DNA of 64,000 nt from an uncultured virus (IMG/VR IMGVR_UViG_3300031857_021139) (lineage: Duplodnaviria; Heunggongvirae; Uroviricota; Caudoviricetes): IMG/VR virus record IMGVR_UViG_3300031857_021139; one strand, written 5' to 3'. The notes under the pieces were generated by a model. It saw only the letters and a program-made list of their open reading frames with translations. It was not told the origin of the DNA and did no database searches. Every line of letters starts with the position of its first letter. Position 1 is the first letter of the stretch. The position numbers were made by a program, and so were the translations under genes. Below, piece by piece: positions 8,347 to 57,279 of this stretch.

Positions 8347-8842
8347 AGAGATCCTCGTTCCAATGTCTGTGACCTTCGCGATAGGCCATGTTTGATTGTG
8401 TTTCTCTTACTTCCACGCGATAGCACCACAGCCGATCGGCTTCGCTGGGTCCCCACATGTCAGGAATGTAAACTCCATTGACATATTTGTAAAGCATGTC
8501 CGCCAGGCCTTCGCAACCTAATCGTGGCAGGATGGTCAGTTTGGCCATTTTCTTTTCTTGTAAAAGTTTGAATGTATCCAATTCGGGATCATCTTGAGCT
8601 ACCAATAAAGTATGATCAAATTGATCTTCTAACGTGCTTTTGAGTTCTTTGAGACCACCGTAATCGGCAGCCCAGTTGCGCACGTCCAGATCGTCGGTGC
8701 CAAAATAAAACTTCATGGAGAAACTGTATCCATGTATGAGATTGCAATGGCTGTCGGCTCGCCATTGGCGATAAGCGCAGGGGAAAGCGTCATGATATTC
8801 TTTGGTACTGGTCCAGCGATAAGTCTTTGGTGTTTGATCCAC
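8339..8842 (-). CDS. queD: 6-carboxy-5,6,7,8-tetrahydropterin synthase
   Basis: CNLIHGY, DYGGLK, FDHTLL, GCE and VEVRET T-fold motifs. GTG start with AGGAG SD. Confidence 0.9.
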   Translation of the reverse strand: MDQTPKTYRWTSTKEYHDAFPCAYRQWRADSHCNLIHGYSFSMKFYFGTDDLDVRNWAADYGGLKELKSTLEDQFDHTLLVAQDDPELDTFKLLQEKKMAKLTILPRLGCEGLADMLYKYVNGVYIPDMWGPSEADRLWCYRVEVRETQSNMAYREGHRHWNEDLFA

Positions 8843-28112: not shown

Positions 28113-28577
28113 TCATTTTCCTGCGGCAGCGATGGCTGCCCCGTTGTTGAAACTGGGGCTCCAGGAATTTGGGGTGCGTCTTTTACGTTTATACCATTCA
28201 TAACCGGCTCTGTGACCACTACAGTCTACTGTACACGGACTGCCCTTGAAAGTCAACTCGTCTAATTGTTCTTCGTTTGTTTTGGTAGCCACACGCACTG
28301 GCTTTCTACCGCCACCACCTACGTCTTTGCCTGGTTTGCCAGCCCTGCCCTGCGCTTGTCGTTTGCGACGCACGGCCGACGCCTTTTGTTTGTCGCTCAT
28401 GGCCGCAGCCTTGGCAGCGGGCACGCATTTGGCATAGCCCTTTTTCTTGCCAGATGTCCCACATTCAGGATGGCCGCCACCTTTTTTCTTTTTGCCGATG
28501 TTGACCCACCGCTGTTTGAACCATTTACGCAGTCCACCTTGGTAAGCACCTTCGATGATGAATTCTTGTGCTCTCAT
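28113..28577 (-). CDS. Basic putative internal head protein (MRAQEFIIE start)
   Basis: True start is ATG 28577 (ATGA overlap). Contains GLRKWFKQRW and a second module after LDE (CTVDCSGHRAGYEW). Confidence 0.7.
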   Translation of the reverse strand: MRAQEFIIEGAYQGGLRKWFKQRWVNIGKKKKGGGHPECGTSGKKKGYAKCVPAAKAAAMSDKQKASAVRRKRQAQGRAGKPGKDVGGGGRKPVRVATKTNEEQLDELTFKGSPCTVDCSGHRAGYEWYKRKRRTPNSWSPSFNNGAAIAAAGK

Positions 28578-28981
28578 TTTACGATGGGTCCACCCTCGAC
28601 CCAGGCATCGCAGGTGCGCTTGGCCGCGCACTTGAATTTCAAGAACTTGCAATATCCAAGATCGCCGGCATCTATGGTGCTCATGGGGTCCGACCCAGGC
28701 TCGGTTCCGATACCCTTGGCTATGCAATCGAGCATATCGGGACTTTTGTCGAAAGCGGCGCAATTGCCACAAAGAGCTGTCCGAGCCTGGCCGGGATCGT
28801 CCATGTTCCATTCTTCGGCCTTGGCCTGCCAAAATTCGTCATTGGGTTGTCCTGGATCCAAGGGTCCATAGCCGTATTCATCTATGGCCTTTTGCCGATT
28901 TTTAAGATTCACATCGATGCTCCGAGTTGCCTCAGGACAACCTTGGCTCACTGCTTCCATGAGATTGATGAGATCTCTCAT
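28574..28981 (-). CDS. Cys-rich hypothetical protein
   Basis: MRDLINLMEA start; CGNCAAF, GYC, FKC and RTCDAW suggest metal binding. Confidence 0.7.
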   Translation of the reverse strand: MRDLINLMEAVSQGCPEATRSIDVNLKNRQKAIDEYGYGPLDPGQPNDEFWQAKAEEWNMDDPGQARTALCGNCAAFDKSPDMLDCIAKGIGTEPGSDPMSTIDAGDLGYCKFLKFKCAAKRTCDAWVEGGPIVK

Positions 28982-40480: not shown

Positions 40481-40726
40481 TTATGGCAGCGGCACTGACT
40501 TCAAAGCGTTGATGATATTGTTGAAAGCTATCTGTTGATCCAGTTCATCTGCACTCAGTTGTATTTGGTCCAGCCGTTGCAGATCTGTCATCAGTGCTTG
40601 ATATTCGTCAGCACTCATCTCACCGGCTTCGGCTGCAGCCTTGTAGGACAAAGCCTGTTGCATGCGCTGTGACAGTGCTGTATTTTGTTGCAAGAAGTTG
40701 TGTATTACCGTGTCTATGTTCATCAT
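40481..40726 (-). CDS. Hypothetical protein
   Basis: Coupled to the upstream lipoprotein gene. Confidence 0.6.
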   Translation of the reverse strand: MMNIDTVIHNFLQQNTALSQRMQQALSYKAAAEAGEMSADEYQALMTDLQRLDQIQLSADELDQQIAFNNIINALKSVPLP

Positions 40727-41145
40727 GATCTGGGTCTCCGGGCCGAAACTTTCATTATGGTATCCGTGGCAAGACGGATGTTTTCAAACTTGTTCTTGCA
40801 GTAGAATACGCTCACTGTGGCAGTGCTCTCGTACCTGTCTGCGAGTTCCTTGGTGATCTGCATGAGTTCCAATTCCATCTTGGTCATCTTTTCGTTGTCC
40901 GATAGATGCTGTCCATAGTGCCAGACCCAACGAGCGTCCTGATACATCTGTTGTGCCACAGGTGCGGCTGCTTCTCTCCGATTGCATACGGAATCATCGA
41001 TGGCAGCCACGTGTATGTTGACTATGCGAGCATGTTCATTGGCATCAAACATAGATGGAAACAGGGCACAACCTGTAAGCAGTATAGCTAACAAAAATGC
41101 GATACCGGTGTAACCGACTATACGTCTCTGGTTGTAAGGTGACAT
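40723..41145 (-). CDS. Lipoprotein
   Basis: Lipobox LLTGC; AGGAG SD. Confidence 0.7.
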   Translation of the reverse strand: MSPYNQRRIVGYTGIAFLLAILLTGCALFPSMFDANEHARIVNIHVAAIDDSVCNRREAAAPVAQQMYQDARWVWHYGQHLSDNEKMTKMELELMQITKELADRYESTATVSVFYCKNKFENIRLATDTIMKVSARRPRS

Positions 41146-41792: not shown

Positions 41793-42503
41793 TTAATTTG
41801 TTTGGTTTTTTTGATACCAGCGATCTACCACATCAAAGGCTGGTCGGAAGAATATGGCTATGGGAAAACCTTGATCACGTCGTATCATGCCCACTCGTGT
41901 CTTACCTTGAGGCGCATCAGTTTTCTGGTCTCGGCCCACACGTTGCAACCAAGCATCAGGGCGTATGCGTACCAACCAGGTGTAAGGATGCTGGCTGGCA
42001 AACAGATCACCACCCTGTAGATAAGTGCGCAGAGGATAAAACCACAGTGCGGGTCGACCTCCCGGACGTGGCAGTGACAACGGATCAAAGTCAGGATCGT
42101 CGATGTCAGGAGTGCGACCAAAGTGTTGTCTTGCTGAAAATCCCACCTTGTCTTGATCCGTGAAGCGCACGAAATATTCGTCCGGTGATCCCGGCAATAT
42201 GGTGGCCATGTTTTCGATCTCAGTGCGGGCATCAGCGTGCCGGGCTTCGTGTAACTTGGAGTCTATGGTCAAAGGACGGAGATATCCAGCACTGCCAGGA
42301 TCATATTCATAGCCAAGATCATTGAGTTCTTGCATCATGGCCTGTGTTTCGGCTCTGAGACGCTGGAAAAGTTGATCATTACCATACTGCCGCATATGGA
42401 CATTGAGATCTAACACATGATCGTGTATGTCGCCGGCAATGGATCTCGCAGTGTTGATGTTCACACCGGGCTTGGCTTCGATTACAAACTCTTGTGCTCT
42501 CAT
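41793..42503 (-). CDS. Putative internal head protein (MRAQEFVIE start), two modules
   Basis: CTS-like N-terminus; LHE linker. Confidence 0.7.
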   Translation of the reverse strand: MRAQEFVIEAKPGVNINTARSIAGDIHDHVLDLNVHMRQYGNDQLFQRLRAETQAMMQELNDLGYEYDPGSAGYLRPLTIDSKLHEARHADARTEIENMATILPGSPDEYFVRFTDQDKVGFSARQHFGRTPDIDDPDFDPLSLPRPGGRPALWFYPLRTYLQGGDLFASQHPYTWLVRIRPDAWLQRVGRDQKTDAPQGKTRVGMIRRDQGFPIAIFFRPAFDVVDRWYQKNQTN

Positions 42504-43081
42504 TTTTTCGTGGCCGCCAATCTTATGTTGCGTGCGATATACCGACTTTCGCGGTTTCGTGCGGCATCTGCGGGCACAGCATACATCTCTGCATCTCGTG
42601 CGCCAAAGTTTAAGATTTCACCAGTTTGCGTGTCATATCCATAGACTTCGATGTCAGGGTAACCTTCCAACTGCTGCCACACACGCTGACCACCGGGACT
42701 CTGATTGCGATCTGATATCAAGGTCAGGCCTTGATCCAAGATGAGACCACGATAGAACTTGGCGGCACGCACGGGATTGCCCGGTGCCGCATAGAGCCCG
42801 GCCACGATCAGTGAGTTGGGGTTGCCTTTATATCGGCTGCCAAAGGCCACCACGATCACGGTACGGCTTTTGGGATCAAACAGTTGGTAACTGACCTGTC
42901 CACCCAGATAGTCTCGATACAAAGGGTAACCTGCGATCTTGCCCACTTGTTGACCGAGATATCGCGTTTCTTCGTTGGGACGTATGGCTTGGCCGCGCTT
43001 GGGCAACATGCTGGGCTGATCGCCTTTGCCTTTGACTTTGTTGAGTATCTTCACTTCGGATATAAAATCTTTTGCTCTCAT
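42500..43081 (-). CDS. Putative internal head protein with a GNAT-like fold (MRAKDFISE start)
   Basis: AAKFY...LISDRNQSPGGQRVWQQL resembles the C-terminal motif of divergent GNATs. Confidence 0.6.
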   Translation of the reverse strand: MRAKDFISEVKILNKVKGKGDQPSMLPKRGQAIRPNEETRYLGQQVGKIAGYPLYRDYLGGQVSYQLFDPKSRTVIVVAFGSRYKGNPNSLIVAGLYAAPGNPVRAAKFYRGLILDQGLTLISDRNQSPGGQRVWQQLEGYPDIEVYGYDTQTGEILNFGARDAEMYAVPADAARNRESRYIARNIRLAATKK

Positions 43082-43656
43082 AGGCTGTAGGGATCCACTA
43101 TAACAAGATGGCCATTATTCCTACGGCCAAGATTTTCTACGGCTGACAAGTCCAAAGGTGCCTGTCCGCCCAAGACCTGTATCATGTCTTCGGTGGCTTG
43201 TATCAGTCCAAATATTTCTTCCTCGTTCATCTCTGCAGGCACAGGATTACGTTGTAAAAACTGCTCGCCCTGTTCGCGGTCTACAGCACTCATTAGTTTT
43301 TCTATGTAGTCCAGGGTTGCTTCTTCGTTGGCCACATAGTTTACTCGTTCCATTTCATACACAAAGTAAGTTTCACCATCTACGGTGAAATTGCCCGAGT
43401 TGTAGATCCTGGGATAGTAGGGATTCCGTTGATTCTTTTCAAAGAAGCGAACATAGTTCTTGACTATGTCTTCACGTTCCATATCTCCTGTGCCCAGCAC
43501 TTTGACGATGGTTCCTCTAGGACTTTCAAAAGCCATCTGATCACGTCCTTCGCCGGCCAAGTCATAGCCACGCTGGTAGAAATAGTTTTGGATCCTATCG
43601 CTGACTGTGAGTTCGTCAGGATAGTTGACTTCGGAGATAAAATCCTGGGCTCTCAT
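43078..43656 (-). CDS. Protein-kinase-like putative internal head protein (MRAQDFISE start)
   Basis: Gly loop LAGEGRD, IVKV lysine, YEMERV hinge, DLSAVEN and VIVDP. Confidence 0.65.
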   Translation of the reverse strand: MRAQDFISEVNYPDELTVSDRIQNYFYQRGYDLAGEGRDQMAFESPRGTIVKVLGTGDMEREDIVKNYVRFFEKNQRNPYYPRIYNSGNFTVDGETYFVYEMERVNYVANEEATLDYIEKLMSAVDREQGEQFLQRNPVPAEMNEEEIFGLIQATEDMIQVLGGQAPLDLSAVENLGRRNNGHLVIVDPYSL

Positions 43657-44001
43657 TCATTCATCCAGACCATGCTGTCGCATGAATGAGTCATATCGGT
43701 CAGTGTGTCGCCGGATGATGTCGTAAAGCCCTTGCGTCACTCGGAGATCCTGGCGAGGCAGAGGCTCTCCCACTTTGATGCGATTTAGGAACTTTTCCAG
43801 CAACTCTTTGCCGGCCTGCAATGCTTCGTGATCGGTTTGACCACGCACTGCGGGCACCAAGCGTTCCACGGCCGCACGATCTGCGGGTGAAAATATCTGT
43901 GCCCGGGCACTGTCAGCAGGCAAGGTGACCACGGGACTCTTCTGTGCCAGGAAACTGGCAAGGTCTTTGTTTTCGGTCATGATGAATTCCAAGGCTCTCA
44001 T
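43657..44001 (-). CDS. Putative internal head protein (MRALEFIMTE start)
   Basis: True start is ATG 44001 (TAATG overlap). Confidence 0.65.
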   Translation of the reverse strand: MRALEFIMTENKDLASFLAQKSPVVTLPADSARAQIFSPADRAAVERLVPAVRGQTDHEALQAGKELLEKFLNRIKVGEPLPRQDLRVTQGLYDIIRRHTDRYDSFMRQHGLDE

Positions 44002-45125
44002 TATACGTACCTTGCAAGGGTGTCGGGTCCCAAATCTCGTATGCGATTGGGAGGAATTCGCACAGTTGAAAAGTGCCAACCATATTGGTATTCCAGTGGA
44101 AGCCCAGTGATATCAACTTGCAACAAGGTCAACTCTTCATCCGAGTCGTAGGCTTTGGCTCCTATCCAACCGGCCACTTGATATATTTCGTCACGCAACT
44201 TCTTTTGATTGCCCTCGTCTACTACTAAGAATGCTTTGCCATCGCGGGGGTCCAATCCTTTGTACATGATTTCTTCTGCGTTTTCAAGGCCAGTGATATG
44301 ATATGCTGTCGTTGGTGTTGATGGTTGTTCAGATTCGACCATCTGAGATTCCATCATCTCTGCACCCACACGATCGGCAATCACACTCCATGCTTCCGCA
44401 TTGGCATTGTCGTTGACGACTAATTCTCTATTTTGTGTTTTGTACAGTCTTTCACCGGCTGCAAACAAAGATTTAATCACAGCAGTGGCAGCACCTTTGT
44501 ACTGACCGGCTGTGGCATCTTCTATCACAACAATCATCGACTCGCCTTCGGCATAGGCATTGAGTGTGAGATAAAATGCTCCACGCACAGTATCACTGCC
44601 AGCAAACGCACTGGCTGCACCTTGTTGTCCTTTGGCTGTGGTCAATCCCACACCTTCTACCACCGACCGACCATACAGTTTGACATCTGGGTATAGTTGG
44701 GCAAACGCATCTTGTGCTACTGCTATGATCTGCTGTGCTGGCATTTGTTCAAAGTCCACTGACTCAACGATATCTGCTTCGGGATCTCTGTTTCTCCAAA
44801 ATGCTTTGCCCGGATCAGTGAGTGCGTGGCTGGGTTCTATATCGTTGCCCAGTTCTTCAGCAAAATCGTACATCATTCGAGCAATGCCTCGACGACGGTA
44901 TTCTGGTTTTACTTCGGCTGTGCTGGCTTGTAAATGATCACCAAGGTTTATAAATGACACACTGCCAACTTCTTGGTCATCAATTGAAGCTGAAATTTCT
45001 AATCTACCTGCTTCTTCGATCCAGGCTCGTAATTTTATACCATTGCGTTCTTCGGAGTAGTTGAAACTGCGATCATACTCCAGTTCGGGCATTGTGTCTT
45101 CGAGGATAAACTCTTGTGCTCGCAT
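44001..45125 (-). CDS. Polyprotein: GNAT, GNAT-like and ART/Tpt1-like modules (MRAQEFILE start)
   Basis: EVKPEYRRRGIARMMY; GQYKGAA...AEAW; AYHIT..IMYKGLDP..LLQVD..IPPNRI; linkers IVE, MME and MVE. Confidence 0.7.
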   Translation of the reverse strand: MRAQEFILEDTMPELEYDRSFNYSEERNGIKLRAWIEEAGRLEISASIDDQEVGSVSFINLGDHLQASTAEVKPEYRRRGIARMMYDFAEELGNDIEPSHALTDPGKAFWRNRDPEADIVESVDFEQMPAQQIIAVAQDAFAQLYPDVKLYGRSVVEGVGLTTAKGQQGAASAFAGSDTVRGAFYLTLNAYAEGESMIVVIEDATAGQYKGAATAVIKSLFAAGERLYKTQNRELVVNDNANAEAWSVIADRVGAEMMESQMVESEQPSTPTTAYHITGLENAEEIMYKGLDPRDGKAFLVVDEGNQKKLRDEIYQVAGWIGAKAYDSDEELTLLQVDITGLPLEYQYGWHFSTVRIPPNRIRDLGPDTLARYV

Positions 45126-45131
45126 GTTATT

Positions 45132-46016
45132 TTATATCTTAGGTGGCATTACAGCACCGGCATGCGGATGTCCAGCTGGGTAACGCGGACTGTGGGTATC
45201 GCCTTGCCACTGGCCGTTGCCTGGCTTTGGCGGACGATAAGTATCACCAACATTGTATGTATTATCATGATCAGTTGGATACCATACAAACACTATCTCA
45301 TGCTGACTATTGGTTACCAGTGCATAAGTGTGTGCTTTTTGTTGCATTACTGCACGTTTACCAGCGTTCTTAGCACCCTTGAGTGTGTGTGCCGCAAATT
45401 GTCCTGCTCGAACTACGTCAGTATAAATGGTATAAGGATCACCCTCGTCAGGTTCAGGTCTTTCAGGCTGTGGCTCAGGAGGCTTTGCAGCCGCATACAA
45501 CGCCATCATATTTTCTAGGCGGCGAATTTCAGCAACTATTTTAGCACGTTCTTCGTATTTTAATCCTGCCATACGTCGTAATTCTCGAGTTAATAATTGA
45601 ATTTTACGGAGAGCAACATTTGGATTAAAATCTGCGGGCACTTCAGGAAGCACATCCCCAACGTTAGATCCAACTTGACTGGCAACTGGATACCAGTCAT
45701 CACCGGTGGCTTCTTTGGTTAATTGAGATCCTGCGTTACCAAATTTAGACAAATCTTGGCTGTCTTGGAGCCACTGATCCCACTTTTGTAGTTCGGCCAT
45801 GACCTGTTTGTATGCTGTGCTGTTAGGATCAATACGCCCGCGGCTTTGTGCCTGCTTGACTGCATTGGTCAGTTCTTGCACACGCTTCATTACATCCTGG
45901 AGACGATAGTTTCCATTGACCTTGGGTAGATTTGGACCAGAGACATATTGTATAACTCTGTCAAATACACCAGCTGGTACTTGTGGGGCTTCTTTTATGA
46001 TTTGTTTTATTTTCAT
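45132..46016 (-). CDS. Modular hypothetical protein (MKIKQIIKE start)
   Basis: CTS-like start; LTKE linker. Confidence 0.65.
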   Translation of the reverse strand: MKIKQIIKEAPQVPAGVFDRVIQYVSGPNLPKVNGNYRLQDVMKRVQELTNAVKQAQSRGRIDPNSTAYKQVMAELQKWDQWLQDSQDLSKFGNAGSQLTKEATGDDWYPVASQVGSNVGDVLPEVPADFNPNVALRKIQLLTRELRRMAGLKYEERAKIVAEIRRLENMMALYAAAKPPEPQPERPEPDEGDPYTIYTDVVRAGQFAAHTLKGAKNAGKRAVMQQKAHTYALVTNSQHEIVFVWYPTDHDNTYNVGDTYRPPKPGNGQWQGDTHSPRYPAGHPHAGAVMPPKI

Positions 46017-46026
46017 TTCAAATTCC

Positions 46027-49000
46027 TTATCTCATCTCCGGCACTACTTCCAAAGGATCATCGATCCGCGACTGCTGTGCCCAACGCTGTGCCACTCTGT
46101 TGGCATCGGCTTGGCTGTTGCCTATGCCACCAAATGTGTGTAGAACTTCATTGGTGTTGGCATTGCGTATCTGCCACCGACCAGAGAATTCCTGTTGTGT
46201 TGATGCAGGAATAAATTCGCGCATGCGTCGCCAGGCTGGAGGTTCTTGTGGATTGGCTTCGATGCTGACGATGTCGCGACGTTGTGCCTGGAGAGCCGAA
46301 CGCACACGATCCATGGCAGCATTGGCATTCTCAGCATCTACGTTGAGGCTGTCTTGAACTTCTTGACCGTTGCGACGTTCACGCCAGATCACTCGGTAGT
46401 ATCCGGTGTCTCTCACAGCACCGGCTGGTTGCGGCTCGCCTATGCGTGCTTGTAAATCTTTGGAATCTTGTGCATTGTCTGCAGCCACTTCTGGACTTAC
46501 TTTGGGTTCTTTTAATCGTTTGGCCACCTGCGCTCTTGGGCTCAGTTTGTTTTTTGGTTCTGGAGTCTCGTCGGGTCTACGGAATACTTTCCAGTCATCC
46601 GACAATCGATCTCCATATTCTGCTTGGACTTTTTGTGTGGCTTGATCAATATCTCGAGCTCGCACAGTTAAAAAGACATCGCCATAACTGTCTTTGACAT
46701 CAAACCATGGCTGTTTGATACGGACTTCAAGTTCGTTGATGTCCTTGCCGTATTGTCTCAAGAACAGATCGTAGGCACTGTCATAGTCCGTGGCATAGAA
46801 TGTGCCAACAATTCCATCGGGACTGTCTTTGTTGTCTCGACGGTAGACTTCGTATTCTTCTTTACCTGTGGTAGGAATTTCTTTCTGTAGTACAGCATCA
46901 GCCCACTGTTTTTTCAACTGTTCTGGTGAAATGGTTCCTGCGGCATATTCAGAGAACAGTTTCAATCCATCATCCTGAGCTCCTGGGCTGATCAATTTGT
47001 ATAATTTTTTAGCATACTCTCGTCGCTCCAAAGAAGGACTACCAGCGATCTGCATGGCTCGAGCAAAGCGCAACATGGTATTTTTTATGTCGTCATATTC
47101 GCCACGGCTTTCCATGCTGAGATAATCACCACCAGGACTGCGGAATTCAATATAGCCATCTTTGATGTGTGCCGAAGTGTATTTGCTGAGACCTACACCA
47201 TCCTGCACGTAACGAGCAGCCAACTCAATGAGATTCTTTTGAACCAGTTCCAAGGCACCCAAGGGGTCTAATTTGGCTTCTGTTAGTTCGCCACGATTAC
47301 GGGCTCCGGCCATGTTCTGGCGCAGTTTGCTCATAGCCGAGGCCGCATAGGTATTTGATGCACGACCAAACTTGTCCAGGATGTATTCGTCGCCCATGAA
47401 CAACACCAGTTTCACGTAGTCAACATCACCACCCACATAGGGTATGCTTATGCCCATGTGTAGACCAGTTGATGAGTTAGTGTAAGCATCGGCTTCGTTG
47501 TTACCCCACTCAATCACTGCTTTCAATTTGTCCAAAGTCTCTGGCAATGGCATGGGCGGAGATACGATTTCTAATCCCATGTCTTCGTAATCGTCGGGGT
47601 CCAGGCTGCCATCAGGTTCGATGATCCAACGATCATCTCGGCGGGTGGCAGAATGATATCCAGAACTGACCTTGACAGGCATATCCACTGCGCTTTGCAA
47701 GCTGCTGCCAATGTCTTCCCAGTCGCGTTCGCCGCCACCTTGACTACTGCCGGTGTAGTAAGGCCAATCCAGACCAAATTCGTTGGCGATGTCGCTCATC
47801 CAGCGCAGACCCACATCCGAAAAGAAAGAATCATCATCACCTGACCAGTTGTCGCGGAAATTGTCCAAGGCAGTGTCATAATAGCCATCTTGCCTGCGTA
47901 TGCTGTCTTCCACTTGCTCTTGTAATTCTGTGTCTACAGCATCAGCGGCCTCCAGATATTGTTCGTAGTCTGAGTTTTCAGCCGCGTAGGCTTCTTGATC
48001 CGAATTTTTTGTAAAACTCGGCGCCTTCGAACCAGCGGCTATGATCCTGTCTGCTTCTTCGTCGGACTTCTGTAGGGCGTCTGTGAGGTATACATAGATG
48101 CGGTCGCTGAGGGGTGTGTCATCTAACAACACTTCGCGTACGAGATCTTCGGCTTCGTTGCCAAAATCGTCTATGATCTGACTGTCACGCCATTCCATGT
48201 AGGTTTCATCTAGTCTTTCTTCCAGACGATCTTGTTGGCGTTGTGTCATGCCATAACCATAGTCGTCATTGGCAAAGAAATCTACTACCTGTGCCACGCT
48301 AAAAGCACGCTCATCTGCGTCATAGTCGGGCTCCATTTCCTCGTCATCATCATCACGCTTGGTATTGCGGAAGATCATTTCCGCTTCGAAACCGGCACGG
48401 ATACCCTGGGCTTCGGGCGATCGCGCCCAGTCTTCCAGAGACGTGGGATTCATCTTGACTTCTAATAGATCCTCTTCCTCATCGATCTCCACACAGTTGG
48501 GCACCATCCTATTGCCCTTCCGCTTCATGCCTTGCTGTTGATAACCGTCCCAGCATTTCTCATCCAGTTTCACTGCTTCCAGGAGATTGTTTAATTTTTT
48601 CATCAACAGTTGCGGACGACCTTGGCTGTCGGTTTTCAGTCCCAGTTTGTTGGCTTCCTTGCCTGTCTGGCCAGGTTGCACATCCACAGTCAGTGCCATC
48701 TTGAAACGCGGATCATTCTTTTGTTTTTCTGTTGGGATGTAGCCCGATGCCTCGGCCACTTGCTTTCTCATCTGCTGTGCCAGTCTATAGGTCTTGATGA
48801 ATTCTTGTTCTTGTCGAGTCATGGGCCGCCCAAGATTGGCCTTCATATGCAAGAACTTGTAGTAATCATCGTGTGCTTTTTGGTTCTTGGCCACGGGAGT
48901 TTGTATGGACTCTTTCCGCATGTCCGACTGTGCTTCTCGGCGCCATTGATCAACCAGTTCCGGTGATGGCGATGGTTTGGCACCCTGCCGTCCATTGCGT

Positions 49001-50721
49001 ATCCAATCTTTCATGGCTTGTTGGAATTCTTCCTTGGCACCAGCACGGATGATATCTCCACGGCTGGCAGTGCCATAGGGCTTGGTGGCCTGGATTGCAC
49101 GACCAATGGCTTGGGCACCTTGTATGGCATCAGTGCCTGTGGTAGCACAACCTGGCGTGCCAGCTACACAGGCGGCGGCAGCCAAGGCACCTAACTTGGA
49201 TTTGATACCTTCATCAAGGTTGCCAAAATATTCGGGATTGAGATCTGCGTAACGGCGCATGATGATACCGGCAGCGGCATTGGCTTCGTTTTCCCAGTCA
49301 CTGCCAGTGTCACCGCTGTGTTCTGGCATAGGAGAGATTTCGTTCTGGCGATGATGTGCCAGTTCGTGGGCCACGGTGCGCATGATGTCCAAAGGATGGC
49401 GATTGACCAGGCTCACATACAAAGTATTTTCTTCGGGCTTGTAACGACCAAATGTGTTGTTGCGTTCGCTCCAGGCTGGATCTCTGCGGAACTTGATCTT
49501 GGGCATGTGATCTATGCCCAATTGTCCTGCGGCAAAGGCTATGAATCTCTCCAGCATGTGTTCAGCACCTTGGTCCTCATCCATGCGATAAGCACCTTCG
49601 GGATCTTTGTTCTTGGCCCTGCGATCAATGTCCAAGGTCTTCATGCCCAGCCGATCGAGATCCTTTTTGTAGAGATGCTCTATGGGTTCCGACCCAAAAC
49701 TCAAAACGGTTTGTGGAGCGCCTTTGCCGTAGGCACGAGGATCTGCGTGCTTGAGGTCACTGATGTCTTGGCCTAACTTGTACCAATCATACACGTCACT
49801 GACATTGACTAACACAGTGCCTGCTGGCATTTCAGGTTTGAATTCTGGACCTGGTGGTTCATCATTGGGATCGTAATCCTCGACACGGCTTTCGCCGCCG
49901 CCATCACCACCACCACCGGCATCGCTGCCTTCTGTTGAGCCATATCCAAAGCCTGGATAAAAATATCCACCAAATGATCCCCAACGGCGCTTGCTACGTT
50001 TCTTTTTCCGTTCGCTGAGACTCATCAATTGATCTTTGGCCTGCAGGCGTGCGTTGCGCAGTCGTTCAAGGGTGCCGTTGCCTCGCAACACCTTGAAGGC
50101 CAGATTCTCCGGACCAAACTCACCGTGCTGGTCCAATCCGCTCTGACGGAGCTCACGTATCTTGGTAGCCATCTTGTCCATGCGATCGAGGTCCCCGGAT
50201 TCAATGGCCTGATCAATACGTGATGCAAGATCTTCGTACTTGCTCTTGACTGAAATGTCATCTACGTCAGGTTGTCTACGATTAGGAACACGCACCCATT
50301 TGTCATGCAACACTGAATATATGCCCTGGCTGTGATGTGGTTTGCGGGCATCTTGCACATAGAGTTCTACGTCATAGCCACCGATCTTGAAATCATGCTG
50401 ATCGTTGTACTGATATTTCTTCGCATCAAAAAGTTCACGATAGACTTCGCTGTCATCAGCCCTGGGCAGGTCTGTGACTAAATGAAGATCTATGTCTGAA
50501 TGAGGGGTGTATGTATAGGCTGCATTAGAGCCAGACACAGTGATGTCTTTGACTTCGACACCTATGCCCAGGCTTTCGCGGAAGTCGTCTGCGATAGCCA
50601 GCAGACGTTCGCGCACTTGTGGCAACATCTGCTCGTCTGGCCCCCAGATTCGGGGGTTTAGACGATCATTAAATTTTACAGCGTCTGAAAGACGATAATT
50701 TTCTAACTCACGGAGATCCAT
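46027..50721 (-). CDS. 1564-aa polyvalent protein: Pol-beta-type nucleotidyltransferase, HExxH metallopeptidase, amidoligase and small modules
   Basis: VSGSNAAY...SDIDLH; VAHELAH; GFEAE, EPDGSL, GLEIVSPP, STGLHM and IEFRSPG. Confidence 0.8.
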   Translation of the reverse strand: MDLRELENYRLSDAVKFNDRLNPRIWGPDEQMLPQVRERLLAIADDFRESLGIGVEVKDITVSGSNAAYTYTPHSDIDLHLVTDLPRADDSEVYRELFDAKKYQYNDQHDFKIGGYDVELYVQDARKPHHSQGIYSVLHDKWVRVPNRRQPDVDDISVKSKYEDLASRIDQAIESGDLDRMDKMATKIRELRQSGLDQHGEFGPENLAFKVLRGNGTLERLRNARLQAKDQLMSLSERKKKRSKRRWGSFGGYFYPGFGYGSTEGSDAGGGGDGGGESRVEDYDPNDEPPGPEFKPEMPAGTVLVNVSDVYDWYKLGQDISDLKHADPRAYGKGAPQTVLSFGSEPIEHLYKKDLDRLGMKTLDIDRRAKNKDPEGAYRMDEDQGAEHMLERFIAFAAGQLGIDHMPKIKFRRDPAWSERNNTFGRYKPEENTLYVSLVNRHPLDIMRTVAHELAHHRQNEISPMPEHSGDTGSDWENEANAAAGIIMRRYADLNPEYFGNLDEGIKSKLGALAAAACVAGTPGCATTGTDAIQGAQAIGRAIQATKPYGTASRGDIIRAGAKEEFQQAMKDWIRNGRQGAKPSPSPELVDQWRREAQSDMRKESIQTPVAKNQKAHDDYYKFLHMKANLGRPMTRQEQEFIKTYRLAQQMRKQVAEASGYIPTEKQKNDPRFKMALTVDVQPGQTGKEANKLGLKTDSQGRPQLLMKKLNNLLEAVKLDEKCWDGYQQQGMKRKGNRMVPNCVEIDEEEDLLEVKMNPTSLEDWARSPEAQGIRAGFEAEMIFRNTKRDDDDEEMEPDYDADERAFSVAQVVDFFANDDYGYGMTQRQQDRLEERLDETYMEWRDSQIIDDFGNEAEDLVREVLLDDTPLSDRIYVYLTDALQKSDEEADRIIAAGSKAPSFTKNSDQEAYAAENSDYEQYLEAADAVDTELQEQVEDSIRRQDGYYDTALDNFRDNWSGDDDSFFSDVGLRWMSDIANEFGLDWPYYTGSSQGGGERDWEDIGSSLQSAVDMPVKVSSGYHSATRRDDRWIIEPDGSLDPDDYEDMGLEIVSPPMPLPETLDKLKAVIEWGNNEADAYTNSSTGLHMGISIPYVGGDVDYVKLVLFMGDEYILDKFGRASNTYAASAMSKLRQNMAGARNRGELTEAKLDPLGALELVQKNLIELAARYVQDGVGLSKYTSAHIKDGYIEFRSPGGDYLSMESRGEYDDIKNTMLRFARAMQIAGSPSLERREYAKKLYKLISPGAQDDGLKLFSEYAAGTISPEQLKKQWADAVLQKEIPTTGKEEYEVYRRDNKDSPDGIVGTFYATDYDSAYDLFLRQYGKDINELEVRIKQPWFDVKDSYGDVFLTVRARDIDQATQKVQAEYGDRLSDDWKVFRRPDETPEPKNKLSPRAQVAKRLKEPKVSPEVAADNAQDSKDLQARIGEPQPAGAVRDTGYYRVIWRERRNGQEVQDSLNVDAENANAAMDRVRSALQAQRRDIVSIEANPQEPPAWRRMREFIPASTQQEFSGRWQIRNANTNEVLHTFGGIGNSQADANRVAQRWAQQSRIDDPLEVVPEMR

Positions 50722-50735
50722 GAGTGTATTTACCG

Positions 50736-51611
50736 TTATTTGGTTTTGGCGGCTTTGGCTTTGCGAGCGGCCGGTTTCTTGTCTTCCGCAGGTGTTTTGG
50801 TGCTTTCGCTGGGTTGATTTGTATTCAACACAGTGGGTGCAGTAACAGGTGCCTGGCTGGCTGGAGTTACTTGGACATTGGTACCAAATTCTCGGGCAAA
50901 GGCTTCATACAAGGGTTGCTGTTGGGCGTAGTCAAACACATAATTACCGGTATGACGCAACAACACACGCTTGTCCACCCAGATCTTGCCGCCGAGATCA
51001 CGCCAATTTTCACAGAAAGTCCAGTCTTCCGAATAGTAGCGATTCTCACGCACCGCGGTATCATAGTAAGTCTTTAGATGCTTGTCCAGTTCCTTGGGCA
51101 AGCCTATATCGTTGTTGAAAGGCTTCACAGCAGGATGAGAATTAAGTTTATCAAACACGTGGCGCTTGACAAGCATGAATCCTGTTCCAGTCTTTGAAAC
51201 TTCTTGAAGACCATCTTCCCCAGTTTCGGCGCCGTCAAAGCCGTTGACCACCCACTTCACTGGCAAGGTTTTCATAGGATACAAGCCACCTATCACGTCA
51301 ACGTCTCTACAAAGCAGGACCAAGAGATGCCAAGGTTCCCAACCGATGTCGGCATCGATGAACATGAGATGTGTGCTGTCAGGGTTGTTGAGGAATTTGG
51401 CCACAAGTGTATTGCGGGCACGTGATATCAATGATTCATTGGTCATGGTTTCCATGGTCCACTCCAAGCCCAGTTGTCGGCAGGTGTTGGACCATTTGAT
51501 GTAACTCATGAATGTGGATTCTGTAAGCATGCCGCCGTAGCAGGGCATGCAGATATGAACACGGGTCTGTCTCAGTAGATCTACGTTTACGGTGATTTGT
51601 TGTTCGGCCAT
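50736..51611 (-). CDS. GT-A fold glycosyltransferase-like protein
   Basis: ICMPCYGG, ESLISRARN, FIDAD, GTGFML and SEDWTFC motifs. Confidence 0.7.
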   Translation of the reverse strand: MAEQQITVNVDLLRQTRVHICMPCYGGMLTESTFMSYIKWSNTCRQLGLEWTMETMTNESLISRARNTLVAKFLNNPDSTHLMFIDADIGWEPWHLLVLLCRDVDVIGGLYPMKTLPVKWVVNGFDGAETGEDGLQEVSKTGTGFMLVKRHVFDKLNSHPAVKPFNNDIGLPKELDKHLKTYYDTAVRENRYYSEDWTFCENWRDLGGKIWVDKRVLLRHTGNYVFDYAQQQPLYEAFAREFGTNVQVTPASQAPVTAPTVLNTNQPSESTKTPAEDKKPAARKAKAAKTK

Positions 51612-51670
51612 TTGGCATCCTCTCAAAATATACGCAGATATTTAACGACTATTTTGGAGGGTGAGATATT

Positions 51671-51766: not shown

Positions 51767-51882
51767 TTTTTCTTGCGTCCGGCGCAGTGTGCTCTTTGGC
51801 TGAAACCGCGAGGACGTTGGCAATTGATACTGCGTTTGTACTTTTGGCTCCATTTTTCGGAGATGAATTCTTTAGCCCGCAT
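51763..51882 (-). CDS. 39-aa basic peptide with an MRAKEFISE start
   Basis: Manual translation MRAKEFISEKWSQKYKRSINCQRPRGFSQRAHCAGRKKK. Confidence 0.7.
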   Translation of the reverse strand: MRAKEFISEKWSQKYKRSINCQRPRGFSQRAHCAGRKKK

Positions 51883-52900
51883 TTTTCTCGTCGAGATAAT
51901 CGCTCATTTCGATTTCACGACCACGTGCGATAGGGCGTCGACCTTGTTTGGCCATGAATGCTTGGTATTCCGCCAGGGCTTGGACCATGCGATCTACCAC
52001 TTCGCCTTTTTGTAAGACATAGTGGAGTCGGTCATAATCACCAGATTTCAACATCTGTAGCATGCTGGAGAATTTGCCTGCGAGATTGGATTTGAGACTG
52101 GCTTCATCCCAGGTTCCCATGCCACCATCGGGTCTGATCTGATGGCCAGCATCAGGGTCGTTGATCAATACTGCTTCGTCTATGTCACTGTCCATGGAGC
52201 TGGCTATTTCAGCTCCAGCCACACGTCCGGCCAATTGCCCCAAAGCACCGGCACCAGCAGATCGTGCCACTGCGCCGCCCAATGCAGCTCCTAACATGGG
52301 AGCAAATTCCTTGACTTCACTGCCAATGACCTCGTCAAAAATTTTCACGATCACATCGGCTAACTTGGTTTTGGTCTGGGTGTCAGGATACAACTGTTTG
52401 ACCAGGCGTGTTTTTTGTTCCTCGTCCATGCCAGGCCATTTGGCGCGGATCTCTGTGGCCGATGTCATGCCTGGTCCAAACTGTACCGTGGGCAGATATA
52501 CCATGTAACCGTGCTGGTCCATGGGTTGGAGATTGTTTCTTTTGTAAGGTTGCAGGTAGGAAGACGTGCCGTCTTTTTTCACGCCTCCAGCCAAGGGTTG
52601 CTGTTCGCGATCTTTTTCACTGCGAGCAAAGATCAGCACAGTGTCTTTGGGATCATAATGCTGAGTTATTTCTTTGGCCTGGAACGGCGATTTGACCTGG
52701 ATGAATCTGTGTCCGTCTACGCCGGCAATGCGAGCCAGTTTTTGTTTTACTTCAAAAGGAAACGGACGGTTAGATGTATCTGCTGTGGCTGCTACATAAA
52801 TGTCTGCCGAGGGAAATGCTTCACGTGCGGCATCGTACAATGCTTTGTGCCCTGCATGGAATGGGTGGAAACCACCTGGTATGATCACGAGCTTTTTCAT
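51872..52900 (-). CDS. HIGH-motif (cytidylyltransferase-like) nucleotidyltransferase with extra C-terminal modules
   Basis: PGGFHPFHAGH and SATEIR; linkers VKE and IDE. Confidence 0.8.
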   Translation of the reverse strand: MKKLVIIPGGFHPFHAGHKALYDAAREAFPSADIYVAATADTSNRPFPFEVKQKLARIAGVDGHRFIQVKSPFQAKEITQHYDPKDTVLIFARSEKDREQQPLAGGVKKDGTSSYLQPYKRNNLQPMDQHGYMVYLPTVQFGPGMTSATEIRAKWPGMDEEQKTRLVKQLYPDTQTKTKLADVIVKIFDEVIGSEVKEFAPMLGAALGGAVARSAGAGALGQLAGRVAGAEIASSMDSDIDEAVLINDPDAGHQIRPDGGMGTWDEASLKSNLAGKFSSMLQMLKSGDYDRLHYVLQKGEVVDRMVQALAEYQAFMAKQGRRPIARGREIEMSDYLDEKNAG

Positions 52901-53881: not shown

Positions 53882-54580
53882 TTATTTATACGTGGTTATA
53901 GGCTGGGTTTTCCTTGCCAGTCGGGGATGAATCAAACTCAGCATGGTTTCAAGTCCAACTACGCTGTGATCGATGAAAAAATAATCTTGGGGGTTTTTCC
54001 AACTGGTGTGATTGACCCATTCATTCAGGCTAGGGCTCAAACGCATGTCAGTCTGTTTTACCAGGAAATCTCTCAAAGCCTGTGACCGACTGTCGCTGAT
54101 GTTGGCATAGCGCAGCCAGGTACGATAGGCATAAGATGATTTTTTCAAGTACACATGACCAACTTCCTGCCCGGACAGCTTGAGTTTGCGCAGATGCATC
54201 TTGGACTGATCCAACCAGGGTATGTCCAAGAGTTCATCTAAAAAAGATTGATCCTGTGTATAGAAATATAAGCAGTTGCCCGAAATTACCAGTTTAAATC
54301 TGCCAGCACGGTATTGCAACCAATCCGCCATGTCATGCACATTTTTTTTGACTGTGTCGTCTATCTGTCGGGGAGTCCAATCTGTACGCCACGAACCGCC
54401 GTAGTTTCGATTGATAGCACGATGTCCCCAACTCTGCCGTATTGCCAAGATACGATCAATCTTTTTATGATCGGGATATCTCAGTACTGCTGCCTCAGGA
54501 AGATATACCAGCAGGCAATGATCGTATTTGCCAAACCAAGCGCCGGGCCTGGAAACTATGTCACAGGGTATCTTAGTCAC
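53882..54580 (-). CDS. Hypothetical protein
   Basis: Intact ORF overlapping the clpA stop. Confidence 0.65.
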   Translation of the reverse strand: MTKIPCDIVSRPGAWFGKYDHCLLVYLPEAAVLRYPDHKKIDRILAIRQSWGHRAINRNYGGSWRTDWTPRQIDDTVKKNVHDMADWLQYRAGRFKLVISGNCLYFYTQDQSFLDELLDIPWLDQSKMHLRKLKLSGQEVGHVYLKKSSYAYRTWLRYANISDSRSQALRDFLVKQTDMRLSPSLNEWVNHTSWKNPQDYFFIDHSVVGLETMLSLIHPRLARKTQPITTYK

Positions 54581-56849
54581 GAGGTTTGAACCTATCGATC
54601 ACTATATAACCTTTTTGATCCACGCTGGGCCTGGTGGCAGTATCAGTGGAGAAAGTCACTGCGTCATCAACTCGGTCTATTGCCACTGTGCAGGATTTTA
54701 ATTCTTCGAACATGATTTTTTTGCTCAGTGGTACCCGGATGATCTCGTCGATCTTCCTGCTCAAGGGTCGGGCACCCATCTTGGGATCATACCCCACCTG
54801 TGCCAGATAATCAATCACTGCCTCGGTCAGTGTTAATCGTATGTCTTTGTCTGCCAGGCTGGTCTTGAGTTCGTCTATGAATTTAACGACGATTTTCTTT
54901 ATAGCCAAGGTATCCAACTTTTCAAACTTGCAGATCTGGTCTATCCTGTTGCGCAGTTCAGGCTTGAAGAAATCTTTCATGGCACGATCTTCTTCGCCGG
55001 TGCGTTCCAGGCTCTTGGCAAATCCAATGTTGTTGTTTTCGTTGTCTCTGGCTCCAAGATTAGAAGTCATGATCACTATGGTGTTCTTGCAGTCCACGGT
55101 CTTGCCATTGCTACTGGTGATCCTGCCTTCATCCAGCAGTTGCAACAGGATATTGATCACGTCAGGGTGTGCCTTTTCGATTTCATCCAACAATATGATA
55201 GCATAAGGATTCTTGCTGAGATCAGAAATCATCTTGCCACCACCCAGGTTGCCATCTTCATAACCCACATAACCCGGTGGCGCACCAATGAGACTGCTTA
55301 CTGTGTGTCGTTCTTGATACTCGCTCATGTCATATTTCAGCAAGGGCATGTCAAGATACCGGCTTAGCAATCGCGCCAGTTCAGTTTTGCCCGTGCCTGT
55401 TGGCCCCAGGAACAGAAAGCTGCTCATAGGTCTGCCTTTGTGTCCGATGCCGGCAAAAGACACGTAGATCCTGTCCAGCACAGCATCCACGGCTTGATCT
55501 TGCCCGTGCAACAGTTGTTTTATATTGGTGGCGAGATCGCGTATCTTGGAACTCTGCTCGTTCTTCAATCTATCCAAGGGCACACCGGCGGTTTTGCTGG
55601 CCTGGGCCATGATCATGTCTTGCGTGACTGTGATCGTACCTGCATCTTTTACCCGCTCTCGAGCACAAGCACCGTCCAGGAGATCTATGCTCTTGTCGGG
55701 ATTTTTCTTGTCATGGATGTATCTGTGCGATAACTCGATGGCAGCCTTGATAGCATCGGTGTCGATCATGACATCATGGAACTTTTCCAAGCGAGCACTG
55801 AGACCAATAAGGATCTGCTCTGTGGCTTCCATGGAAGGTTCATCTATACTGAGCCTATGGAACCGGCGCATGAGAGCGCGATCCTTTTCAAAACTCTCGT
55901 AATATTCTTCCCATGTGGTCGAGGCCACGACCTTGAGCACTCCTTTGGTTATGGCTGGTTTGATCATGTTGGCAAAATCTAACTGGCTGGAACCTGAAGA
56001 TCCAGCACCACGCATGGTATGTGCTTCATCGATAAACAGCACACAGTTCTTCTTGGCTTCCAAGGCCTGGATCACTGCCTTGAGTTTTTCTTCAAATTCT
56101 CCACGATACTTTGATCCTGCTAAAAGGCTGCCTATCTCCAATGACCACAGTTCGTGATTGTGTAAAAACTTAGGCACCTGGTTCTGATTCATCCTCTGCG
56201 CAAGGCCCTCAACTATGGCCGTCTTGCCTACGCCAGGATCGCCTACCATGAGCACGTTGCTCTTGAATCTGCGTGCCAGCACTGTGACCATTTCTTCCAC
56301 TTCAGTGTCACGGCCGATCACAGGTTCCAGGCGATCTTGTTTGGCCATCTTGGTCAAGTTCACACAGTGCTCTTCCAAGATCTCTGTGGCCTGTTGGTCA
56401 GTGATGGTGATATCTTTGTGATTGTAATTCTGTTCCCAGAACTGCACAAACTCAGCCTTGGTGATGCCATGTTTGAGCAAGAAATAGTGGGCATGGCTAT
56501 TGGTTTCAGCCATGATGGCTAGATAAAGATCCGCAGTAGTCAACGTACGACGCCCGGTGAACAACACCTGGGTCATGGCACGGTTGAAACATCTTTCCAA
56601 GCCATTGGTTTTCTTGGGTTGGTCACCATCGTTGACAGTGCCCATGCTGGTGATACTTTGTAGGTAATTTTGTATCTCCTGTTTCATGACTTCCACGTCT
56701 ACACCAAATTTCGCCAAGACTGTGGCAAAAGGAGCATGGTGGACCATGGCCAGCAACAGGTGCTCGATGACCACATAACGATGATTGTGATCGCGTGCCA
56801 ACTTGACTGCGTTGTCGATGATCTGTTCTATTTCAGGATTTGTTTGCAT
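54573..56849 (-). CDS. clpA: ClpA-like Hsp100 AAA+ chaperone
   Basis: Clp N domain (EHLLLA); two Walker A motifs ([16 protein letters not shown]); [14 protein letters not shown] and GARPL; no ClpB middle domain. Confidence 0.9.
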
Positions 56850-57279
56850 TTTGTTCCTTGTATCTATCCCACATGGTGACACCGTCTAAATGATCTAATT
56901 CGTGTTGGAAACATCGGGCCTGCAGGCCTACCAGTGTTTCGGTATGTGCAGTCCCTTGATGATCTTGATATCGCACTTCTACCCAGTCCGGTCTTACAAT
57001 TGTACACTGATCTCCAGGAAAACTCAAGCATCCTTCATCAAAATCGGCCAGCACGTCGCTTTGTTGCAACACTTCCGGATTGAAACAGGCACGACGCACG
57101 CCATGTACCAACATAACAAATACCCTTTGTGACATGCCTACCTGCGGGGCTGCCAACCCTATGCCATTTTGTTTGTGCATGAAATCAAATAGATGCTCGC
57201 TGATCATCCTGTTCCGTTCGGGATATTGGAATGTCACTGGTTTGGCTGTGCGATTTAAAACCCGTTTAGTAAGTTTCAT
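56833..57279 (-). CDS. def: Peptide deformylase
   Basis: GIGLAAPQ, EGCLS and QHELDH motifs. Confidence 0.95.
   Translation of the reverse strand: MKLTKRVLNRTAKPVTFQYPERNRMISEHLFDFMHKQNGIGLAAPQVGMSQRVFVMLVHGVRRACFNPEVLQQSDVLADFDEGCLSFPGDQCTIVRPDWVEVRYQDHQGTAHTETLVGLQARCFQHELDHLDGVTMWDRYKEQNANKS

Follow-up and report, generated by a model that had tools for sequence, protein, structure and literature searches.

An uncultured virus of the class Caudoviricetes (IMG/VR record IMGVR_UViG_3300031857_021139) carries, in the 64,000-nucleotide stretch analysed here (hereafter the window), a gene for a protein of 1564 residues, referred to below as the chain, which is predicted to combine a Pol-beta-type nucleotidyltransferase, a zincin metallopeptidase and a glutamine synthetase (GS)-like amidoligase with a series of smaller modules. 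Judging from the sequence, we consider it probable, at about 0.6, that the chain is a modular capsid-cargo polyprotein, packed in the prohead, cut at joints of the form hydrophobic-x-Glu (h-x-E) by a protease of the gp21 type and delivered to the next host. The estimate goes no higher because packaging, cutting and delivery are inferred, the window does not contain the protease gene of the source phage and the N-terminus of the chain, MDLRE, is only loosely leader-like. What was computed here is the open reading frame (ORF), the domains, the joint motif and its specificity, an array of leader-bearing genes next to the chain gene, the equivalence of leaders and joints, and the protease gene in relatives. 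Polyvalent proteins (PMC5512222) and the capsid-targeting sequence (CTS) system of T4 are already established; new are the downstream array of MRAQEFIxE-type leaders, the exchange of leader and joint in relatives, leader-bearing homologues detected in virions, and a joint that would expose a signal-like segment. A full-text literature search returned no paper on h-x-E-jointed enzyme chains, MRAQEF-type leader arrays or protease-unmasked signals in such phages; the supplements of PMC5512222, which lay outside that search, may list related architectures.

The mechanism that we propose is as follows. One translation product of 1564 residues would comprise at least 10 modules, in the order nucleotidyltransferase, basic/glycine-aromatic peptide, mobile module (residues 282-382), zincin, module with a cryptic signal, three small modules, amidoligase and three tail modules (Table 1). 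The joints between them would be [LIVMF]-x-Glu motifs, matching the specificity of the T4 gp21-type prohead protease. The chain would enter the prohead core together with the products of six downstream genes with CTS-like leaders, and during head maturation the prohead protease would cut after the Glu of the joints, yielding separate enzymes and peptides. Carried along with the DNA, these pieces would enter the next host cell and do their work early on, like T4 Alt and the T4 internal proteins.

The ORF, read from an ATG, and the motifs that a preliminary description of this DNA had named were all recovered at the same places in the translation: G64-S65 and D76-I-D78; HELAH 452 (window positions 49354-49368); GFEAE 777 (window position ~48393), GLEIVSPP 1049, TGLH 1085 and IEFR 1191; ASGYIP 658 with DPRF 670; and KCWDGY 722 with VPNC 740. 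The boundary motifs start at LSE235, MDE380, LDE502/719/837, VAE655 and LLE713/752. Seventeen positions are invariant in 44 aligned full-length relatives, namely G64, S65, D76, D78, E119, H452, E453, H456 and E477 in the first two enzymes, and G777, E779, E781, E1035, E1051, H1088, E1192 and R1194 in the third. The domain assignments could have failed in profile searches; all of them survive profile and fold tests.

One line of evidence for processing comes from the joints. BLAST alignments with 265 relatives begin and end at clustered positions of the chain (235-265, 280-290, 365-390, 495-505, 600, 650-660, 715-720, 745, 1280, 1405 and 1505), and these independent homology breakpoints fall at the same places as the LSE, MDE, LDE, VAE and LLE motifs that had been taken to bound the modules. 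An [LIVMF]-x-E motif lies within six residues of 609 of the 1360 internal breakpoints (0.45), against 0.20 for random positions in the same proteins, a 2.2-fold enrichment among relatives that share ancestry and are not independent, so that its nominal p-value is not literal. By contrast, the control motifs [LIVMF]xD (0.63-fold), non-hydrophobic-xE (0.99-fold) and [LIVMF]x[KR] (0.91-fold) are not enriched, and the joint signal is therefore more than acidic linker composition. Single joints show the same pattern. Despite varied upstream modules, amidoligase modules are preceded by E at -1 in 138/139 and L at -3 in 131/139 cases; ASGYIP modules (n=209) have E at -1 in 91 and at -2 in 123 cases; and KCW modules have h-x-E-type motifs on both flanks in 22/22. 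In the 44-sequence alignment LSE235 is conserved in 42/43 relatives and LLE752 in 38/43, its Glu in 43/43.

A second line of evidence is provided by the genes next to the chain. Directly downstream, consecutive and on the same strand, lie six genes (41793-46016) whose products begin with short leaders ending in h-x-E (Table 1). In T4, cleavage by gp21 follows an L/I-X-E motif, and the CTS of IPIII, its first 10 residues, suffices for packaging (PMC9026906); IPII and IPIII of T4 start with MKTYQEFIAE (NC_000866). T4 Alt, an ADP-ribosyltransferase that is cut at ITE-6 and LTE-619 (PMC5694885), starts with MELITE, a six-residue propeptide to which the MDLRE of the chain can be likened only loosely. 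CTS-like ORFs were found in 30/55 related viral loci, some of which are near-duplicates, 54/54 of these ORFs being on the strand of the chain gene and 0 upstream of it. A gp21-type protease (PF03420) scores above cut-off in 5/5 near-complete related genomes.

Leaders and joints are equivalent at two sites in relatives. The gene at 42500-43081 is 55% identical to the C-terminus of one relative of the chain (P0003), and the leader is swapped for an h-x-E joint at the same residue: MRAKDFISE/VKILNKVKGKG in the window versus ...TVNE/VQILNKVKGKG in P0003. The module before this fusion ends like the C-terminus of the chain, and P0003 continues where the chain gene stops. The same equivalence holds for the gene at 44001-45125, which is 69% identical to the C-terminus of another relative (P0063).

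These observations bear on the main rival explanation, in which the chain processes itself, its embedded zincin cutting the joints in the capsid or after injection. The peptidase is present in 120/120 top relatives with H452, E453, H456 and E477 invariant, it could be the processing enzyme in place of a head protease, and autoproteolysis has been proposed as a general role of the metallopeptidase (MPTase) in polyvalent proteins (Iyer et al. 2017, PMC5512222). However, the same h-x-E context recurs where a peptidase domain is lacking, both in the six single-module neighbours and in stand-alone homologues, and the motif equals the published gp21 specificity, down to the avoidance of Asp at P1. 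Moreover, in cyanophage B23 the peptidase occurs as a stand-alone, leader-bearing protein of 124 aa, which fits cargo and not a built-in processing device. Weakened in particular by the identical cleavage context on genes without a peptidase, self-processing seems to us unlikely.

Cultured phages encode stand-alone counterparts of all three enzymes, with short leaders that end in h-x-E. For the nucleotidyltransferase these are S-CREM2 ORF156 (starting with MKKLISE; 36% identity over 229 residues, E 3e-40) and S-CRM01 g125; for the peptidase, gp332 of cyanophage B23 (starting with MNYKQFLRE, 124 aa); and for the amidoligase, Atu_ph07 gp196 (starting with MRWQDISSKKLTE; 32% identity over 271 residues, E 3e-29) and RsoM2USA_26 (starting with MKLIQKLSE). 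Two of them have been reported from virions: ORF156 with 6 unique peptides in CsCl-purified S-CREM2 virions (PMC10665884, Table 3), and gp196 of Atu_ph07, of which the virion proteome covers 30% by 14 peptides (PMC6102473, Table S5); gene numbers were assigned to the record by gene order and predicted mass. The published RsoM2USA analysis dealt with just 10 abundant bands and is thus silent on ORF26. In addition, the Atu_ph07 virion proteins gp57-63 start with M[RK]WxQLxE. The earlier suggestion of a precursor cut during head maturation gains substantial circumstantial support from the h-x-E joints, the CTS-like leaders, the leader/joint equivalence, gp21 in 5/5 genomes and the virion homologues; the protease gene itself is not in the window. 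The second part of that suggestion, in which the enzymes would add or remove protein tags or make nucleotide signals, is a conjecture, and neither PADLOC nor NCBIfam gave a match to CD-NTases or another named family.

Two further observations concern leader-bearing genes, and a third a neighbour of gp196. A seventh leader gene of the window (MRAQEFIIE, 28113-28577, minus strand) lies 13 kb from the array; the ORF listed there is 28113-28832 with a TTG start, and the leader Met is internal to it. In the Atu_ph07 record, ten consecutive genes at 41844-50592 have products starting with M[RK]WxQL[TNI]E or MRLFQLLE, and seven of these products (~29-41 kDa) were matched by predicted mass to the virion proteins gp57-63; this array may be the counterpart of the MRAQEF leader. 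Atu_ph07 gp195, which adjoins gp196 and is annotated as a nucleotidyltransferase, was rejected as a relative of the nucleotidyltransferase module (E 0.083), and no row for it was found in the virion table.

One joint has a peculiar sequel. LDE504 is immediately followed by Gly-Ile-Lys-Ser-Lys and then by an uncharged hydrophobic run with two Cys residues, and relatives have at the same place either the Cys-containing form or a classic arrangement of n-region, h-region and A-x-A. Among 266 relatives there are 103 such hydrophobic stretches; an h-x-E motif occurs at most 16 residues upstream of 91 of them, in 73 of these at 4-5 residues. As the last step of the mechanism, the cut at LDE504 would place a hydrophobic segment from the interior of the chain at the N-terminus of a piece, where, judged by inspection of the sequences, it would resemble a signal peptide or an anchor. 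There is a precedent of form in mature SPN3US gp47, which is described as starting with a transmembrane segment after removal of its propeptide (PMC5694885). One might alternatively suppose that the chain stays uncut and membrane-anchored, residues 510-527 being an internal transmembrane helix that keeps the amidoligase across the membrane from the nucleotidyltransferase and peptidase, and the uncharged run of ~17 residues would be compatible with it. The stretches are laid out like cleavable signal peptides, and the h-x-E upstream of 91/103 of them, mostly at 4-5 residues, is unexpected for an internal anchor, which makes this topology very improbable. A more specific version of the cleavage scheme is possible, although we advance it tentatively and would not bet on it: by cutting one residue before a buried n-/h-region with A-x-A (or Cys), the head protease would create a functional Sec or lipoprotein signal, which would do nothing in the cell that makes the phage and would work only once the piece has matured in the capsid. 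The injected fragment could then be re-exported to the envelope by the secretion machinery of the new host, while the nucleotidyltransferase, zincin and amidoligase would act in the cytoplasm.

The enzymatic modules could be assigned with differing precision. The N-terminal nucleotidyltransferase shows the features of the Pol-beta superfamily, with hG[GS], DxD on the next strand and a third carboxylate (G64-S65, D76-x-D78 and E119, all invariant in the 44 relatives). Pfam NTP_transf_2 matches residues 52-108 with 19.1 bits, just under the cut-off of 21, which 3/14 scanned relatives exceed, and PHROG 36119 spans residues 15-235 at 2e-41. In an AlphaFold2 model of residues 1-520, residues 30-235 form a confident core and helical domain, whereas residues 246-381, modelled at low confidence, were excluded from statements on the fold. 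Foldseek against solved structures gave ANT(9) as the best match (6xz0, E 1.3e-3, prob 0.94), followed by CdnE (5.6e-3) and AadA; VIA-align gave 2rff (Z 6.4) and FAM46C (Z 6.1). No sequence match to CD-NTases (cGAS/DncV-like) was obtained, either with PADLOC families at E<=0.01 or with NCBIfam families, and CD-NTases appeared only as weak fold rows; these two collections returned nothing for the whole chain, the six downstream leader genes, 28113-28577 and 50736-51626. The early call of a GS..DxD nucleotidyltransferase is thus borne out by the motif, with Pfam slightly below cut-off and modest fold matches; the module looks more like the ANT/MNT type than like a CD-NTase, although the Foldseek, PADLOC and NCBIfam searches did not place it in a family. 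Behind it, residues 238-281 consist of a K/R run, YGxFGGYWYPGY and DGGGDGGGES, with K241, Y247, G248, G271-G276, E277, S278 and E281 nearly invariant.

For the HELAH metallopeptidase the case is clearer. The model of residues 382-500 is very confident (predicted local distance difference test score, pLDDT, 94-98) and consists of a helix, three strands, a helix with HELAH (443-462) and a helix with the downstream E477 (475-494), the four residues H452, E453, H456 and E477 being invariant. This is exactly the order expected of an MPTase, that is, an N-terminal helix, a three-stranded sheet and two C-terminal helices, and the same layout has been described for the zincin core of polyvalent proteins (PMC5512222). 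VIA-align retrieved Wss1 (Z 8.7; root-mean-square deviation 3.5 over 100 residues), SPRTN (8.6), selecase (8.2), and abylysin and IrrE (7.7 each). In the viral structure library BFVD the match was an 'IrrE N-terminal-like' protein of 122 residues (E 1.4e-9, TM 0.84), and a search of the ESM Atlas with residues 291-520 gave a sub-threshold lead (0.87-0.88) that included an IrrE-N-like cluster; residues 1281-1564 found no usable match there.

The amidoligase is interrupted, as the preliminary description had proposed. Pfam Amidoligase_2 (PF12224) matches residues 1003-1092 with 24.9 bits against a cut-off of 22 (profile positions 18-118 of 245) and is at or above this cut-off in 14/14 scanned relatives. 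The first strand, with the invariant GFEAE 777, is separated from the catalytic core (1000-1260) by an acidic helical insert of residues ~790-1000 (28% D+E, 8% K+R), which is present in 120/120 relatives. The model of residues 746-1291 (mean pLDDT 80) shows the GFEAE strand first, then the insert, as a confident helical subdomain and not a loose linker, and then the core. A search of 48,161 chains independent of Foldseek placed three glutamine synthetases on top with modest Z-scores of 8.5, 8.3 and 8.3, and GS-family enzymes occupy 10 of its top 20 rows. Since the alignments to glutamine synthetases cover 180-185 residues from model residues 11-14 to 487-492, across the insert, a split amidoligase with an acidic insert is the right description. 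The top Foldseek rows were HMG-CoA reductases (E 5e-3, TM 0.12-0.15), which were set aside as matches to the helical insert because the independent search puts glutamine synthetases first. We therefore regard the module as a putative GS-like amidoligase, which would form amide bonds at the expense of ATP; it resembles Amidoligase_2 in its Pfam score and its best independent folds, and differs from it in the ~210-residue helical acidic insert after the first strand.

The chain belongs to a very large metagenomic family from jumbo phages of the T4 superfamily, in which modules are shuffled. A word-indexed search collected at least 1679 relatives of 860-2737 aa, and an exhaustive search with residues 1-1200 gave 7711 representatives at E<=1e-3, of which 2025 reach E<=1e-30; many of the relatives come from contigs that are 315-355 kb long. 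The nucleotidyltransferase, peptidase, ASGYIP and amidoligase modules occur in 120/120 top relatives, the C-terminal modules (1282-1564) in 44-66 of 120 and the KCW module in 18/120. Some relatives have additional GNAT, dCMP deaminase or DUF5661 modules, in some the nucleotidyltransferase is internal instead of N-terminal, and module 282-382 may stand before or after the peptidase. The chain thus has the hallmarks of a polyvalent protein, in that several unrelated catalytic domains are present in one phage polypeptide whose architecture varies among relatives. Against cultured phages, megablast with the chain gene found no match, and tblastn found single modules only, 0/52 records covering at least 80% of the chain; such stand-alone modules were seen in Maribacter, cyanophage, Lak, Caulobacter, Ralstonia and Agrobacterium phages. 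For the C-terminal modules (1282-1564), Pfam and ESM Atlas searches yielded neither family nor fold. A profile of 44 relatives retrieved only SNF5 from the PDB sequences (E 0.05), which was dismissed as low-complexity.

Several points weigh against a capsid-cargo chain. The [LIVMF]-x-E motif is found at only 45% of breakpoints in relatives of common descent, two joints are not h-x-E (MRKE603 and LQKE1281), and MDE380 (3/43), VAE655 (5/43), LLE713 (7/43) and LDE719 (2/43) are poorly conserved in an alignment that is unreliable where modules are shuffled. The N-terminal MDLRE is not a leader of the MRAQEF type. Fold matches are modest, with no Foldseek match to the PDB at E<=1e-3 and with VIA Z ~8, middling by the tool's own grading. 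As to the virion data, the Atu_ph07 stock was PEG-purified and replication proteins were also found in it at low coverage (PMC6102473), and the authors of the S-CREM2 study allow for co-purification (PMC10665884). Prohead protease, portal and capsid genes are all absent from the 64-kb window, and the chain gene is surrounded by genes of replication and metabolism (nucleotide-sugar, ClpA-like, lysis) rather than morphogenesis.

The last point in particular suits a different interpretation, namely an unprocessed, non-virion multi-enzyme protein acting inside the infected cell, with h-x-E as a legacy of module recombination: the neighbours are replication, nucleotide-sugar, ClpA-like and lysis genes and not head genes, and the N4 vRNAP and several plasmid polyvalent proteins are described as being transferred uncut (PMC5512222). 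Nor is the T4-type late promoter consensus TATAAATA found directly upstream of the chain gene; its single exact match in the 64 kb, at 53883-53890 (minus strand), where 0.96 are expected by chance, lies upstream of the gene run leading to the chain gene. Without a protease, however, there is no easy explanation for h-x-E being enriched and h-x-D depleted at the joints, nor for the adjacent array of CTS-like leaders or the two stand-alone homologues in virions. We judge it improbable, and the capsid-cargo polyprotein remains the explanation that we prefer.

Table 1. Coordinates of the chain, its modules and the leader genes downstream of it
Feature	Window positions	Strand	Remarks
Whole ORF P0001, modular chain	46027..50721	-	1564 aa, ATG start
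Residues 1-5, MDLRE, short leader ending L-x-E	50707..50721	-	L-x-E at residues 3-5 in 43/43 aligned relatives
Residues 6-237, Pol-beta-type nucleotidyltransferase core and helical domain	50011..50706	-	ends at joint LSE235-237, conserved 42/43
Residues 238-281, conserved poly-Lys/Arg stretch, aromatic-Gly stretch, DGGGDGGGES	49879..50010	-	pLDDT <50
Residues 282-382, mobile module PPGPE...VSDVYDWYKLGQ, ends in MDE	49576..49878	-	breakpoints 280-290 and 365-385
Residues 383-504, putative minimal zincin metallopeptidase (HELAH 452-456, E477), ends in LDE502-504	49210..49575	-	
Residues 505-603, module opening with signal-/lipoprotein-like segment (GIKSK, hydrophobic run, Cys) directly after joint	48913..49209	-	
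Residues 604-657, small helical module (TPVAKNQKAHDDYYKF...), ends in VAE	48751..48912	-	other contexts in relatives; breakpoint 600
Residues 658-721, ASGYIP...DPRF module, ends in LLE/LDE	48559..48750	-	209 occurrences in 208/266 relatives
Residues 722-748, KCWDGY...VPNC mini-module, h-x-E on both sides	48478..48558	-	22/266 relatives; PHROG 9737/4359/727
Residues 755-1281, predicted GS-like amidoligase, starts after joint LLE752-754	46879..48459	-	profile and model
Residues 1282-1564, three variable C-terminal modules (1282-1405, 1406-1502, 1503-1564)	46030..46878	-	breakpoints 1280, 1405, 1505
Gene 1, CTS-like leader MKIKQIIKE	45132..46016	-	
Gene 2, leader MRAQEFILE, then GNAT, IVE joint, module fused to chain in P0063	44001..45125	-	
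Gene 3, leader MRALEFIMTE	43657..44001	-	
Gene 4, leader MRAQDFISE	43078..43656	-	
Gene 5, leader MRAKDFISE, mature part = C-terminal module of P0003	42500..43081	-	
Gene 6, leader MRAQEFVIE	41793..42503	-	

In the window, which is part of a large phage genome, the minus strand encodes almost every gene; the products include a family-B DNA polymerase, nucleotide-sugar enzymes, QueD, GTP cyclohydrolase, a ClpA-like ATPase, peptide deformylase and lysis proteins. By its DNA polymerase the source, a jumbo phage of the T4 superfamily, has its nearest cultured relatives in two jumbo myoviruses, Sinorhizobium phage Phosso (49%) and Agrobacterium phage Atu_ph07 (46%); Rak2/GAP32/CBB-like phages come next. 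The ClpA/ClpB-like double-AAA ATPase (54573-57279, minus strand; 769 aa, PHROG 4871 at 1e-236) is followed by the peptide deformylase gene, and similar Clp-family proteins are encoded by Atu_ph07 and Phosso. QueD-like (8339-8842), GTP cyclohydrolase (11760-12614) and radical-SAM (23169-24008) genes, all on the minus strand, are found beside several nucleotide-sugar epimerases, a UDP-glucose dehydrogenase, and glycosyl- and methyltransferases; this set suggests DNA base modification of the 7-deazaguanine type or sugar chemistry. The gene at 51872-52900 (minus strand), two genes upstream of that for the chain, encodes a cytidylyltransferase-like protein (Pfam CTP_transf_like, 21.3 bits against a cut-off of 21). 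In S-CREM2 a virion cytidylyltransferase is reported to be encoded two genes upstream of the nucleotidyltransferase homologue (PMC10665884), and the window gene was rejected as its counterpart, tblastn giving no match between the two. The product of 40723-41145 (minus strand; 140 aa), immediately beyond the leader array, has a classic N-terminal lipoprotein signal with a basic n-region, a hydrophobic run and LLTGC.

If the proposed scheme is correct, a single short protease motif enables jumbo T4-like phages to build, exchange and transfer whole enzyme sets within one gene product, and the family, with its 2025 representatives at E<=1e-30, would be a major unstudied reservoir of injected early effectors. 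The module boundaries would then be clear enough for the modules to be cloned and tested singly, and the MRAQEFIxE leader would allow capsid cargo to be recognised by sequence in jumbo phages from metagenomes. A re-exported cargo fragment could act, for example, in superinfection exclusion or envelope remodelling, and a protease-unmasked signal peptide would amount to a new way of timing protein export.

Among known systems, the polyvalent proteins described by Iyer, Burroughs, Anand, de Souza and Aravind (2017, PMC5512222) share with the chain many unrelated catalytic domains per polypeptide, a constant zincin-like MPTase, variable architectures and predicted delivery with DNA. They differ from it in several respects: the word 'amidoligase' has 0 occurrences in the main text of that paper, the Pol-beta nucleotidyltransferase is listed there among domains not common to phage-type and conjugative-type proteins, processing is ascribed to the MPTase and not to L/I-x-E joints read by a head protease, and the account given there makes no mention of CTS-like leader arrays. 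The ejection proteins of phiKZ, 201phi2-1 and SPN3US are likewise many head-internal proteins cut after Glu at a three-residue motif, at multiple sites per protein (PMC5694885, PMC9026906); in these reports the motif is S/A-x-E, the propeptides are long, the lineage is another and enzyme chains are not among the proteins described. Atu_ph07 gp196 and S-CREM2 ORF156 are homologous to modules of the chain, have h-x-E leaders and were detected in virion proteomes; they differ in being single-module proteins of cultured phages, annotated as hypothetical. With IPI-III and Alt of T4 the system described here has in common the short N-terminal leaders ending in L/I-x-E (MRAQEFIxE in the window neighbours, MKTYQEFIAE in T4), enzymes as cargo in the case of Alt, and a gp21-family protease, encoded here in related genomes. 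Unlike the T4 proteins, the present system is known from genes alone and the leader of the chain, of 5 residues, does not resemble that of the internal proteins; the cargo enzymes would be a nucleotidyltransferase, a zincin and an amidoligase, and many cargo units would be united, through internal joints, in one product of 1564 aa.

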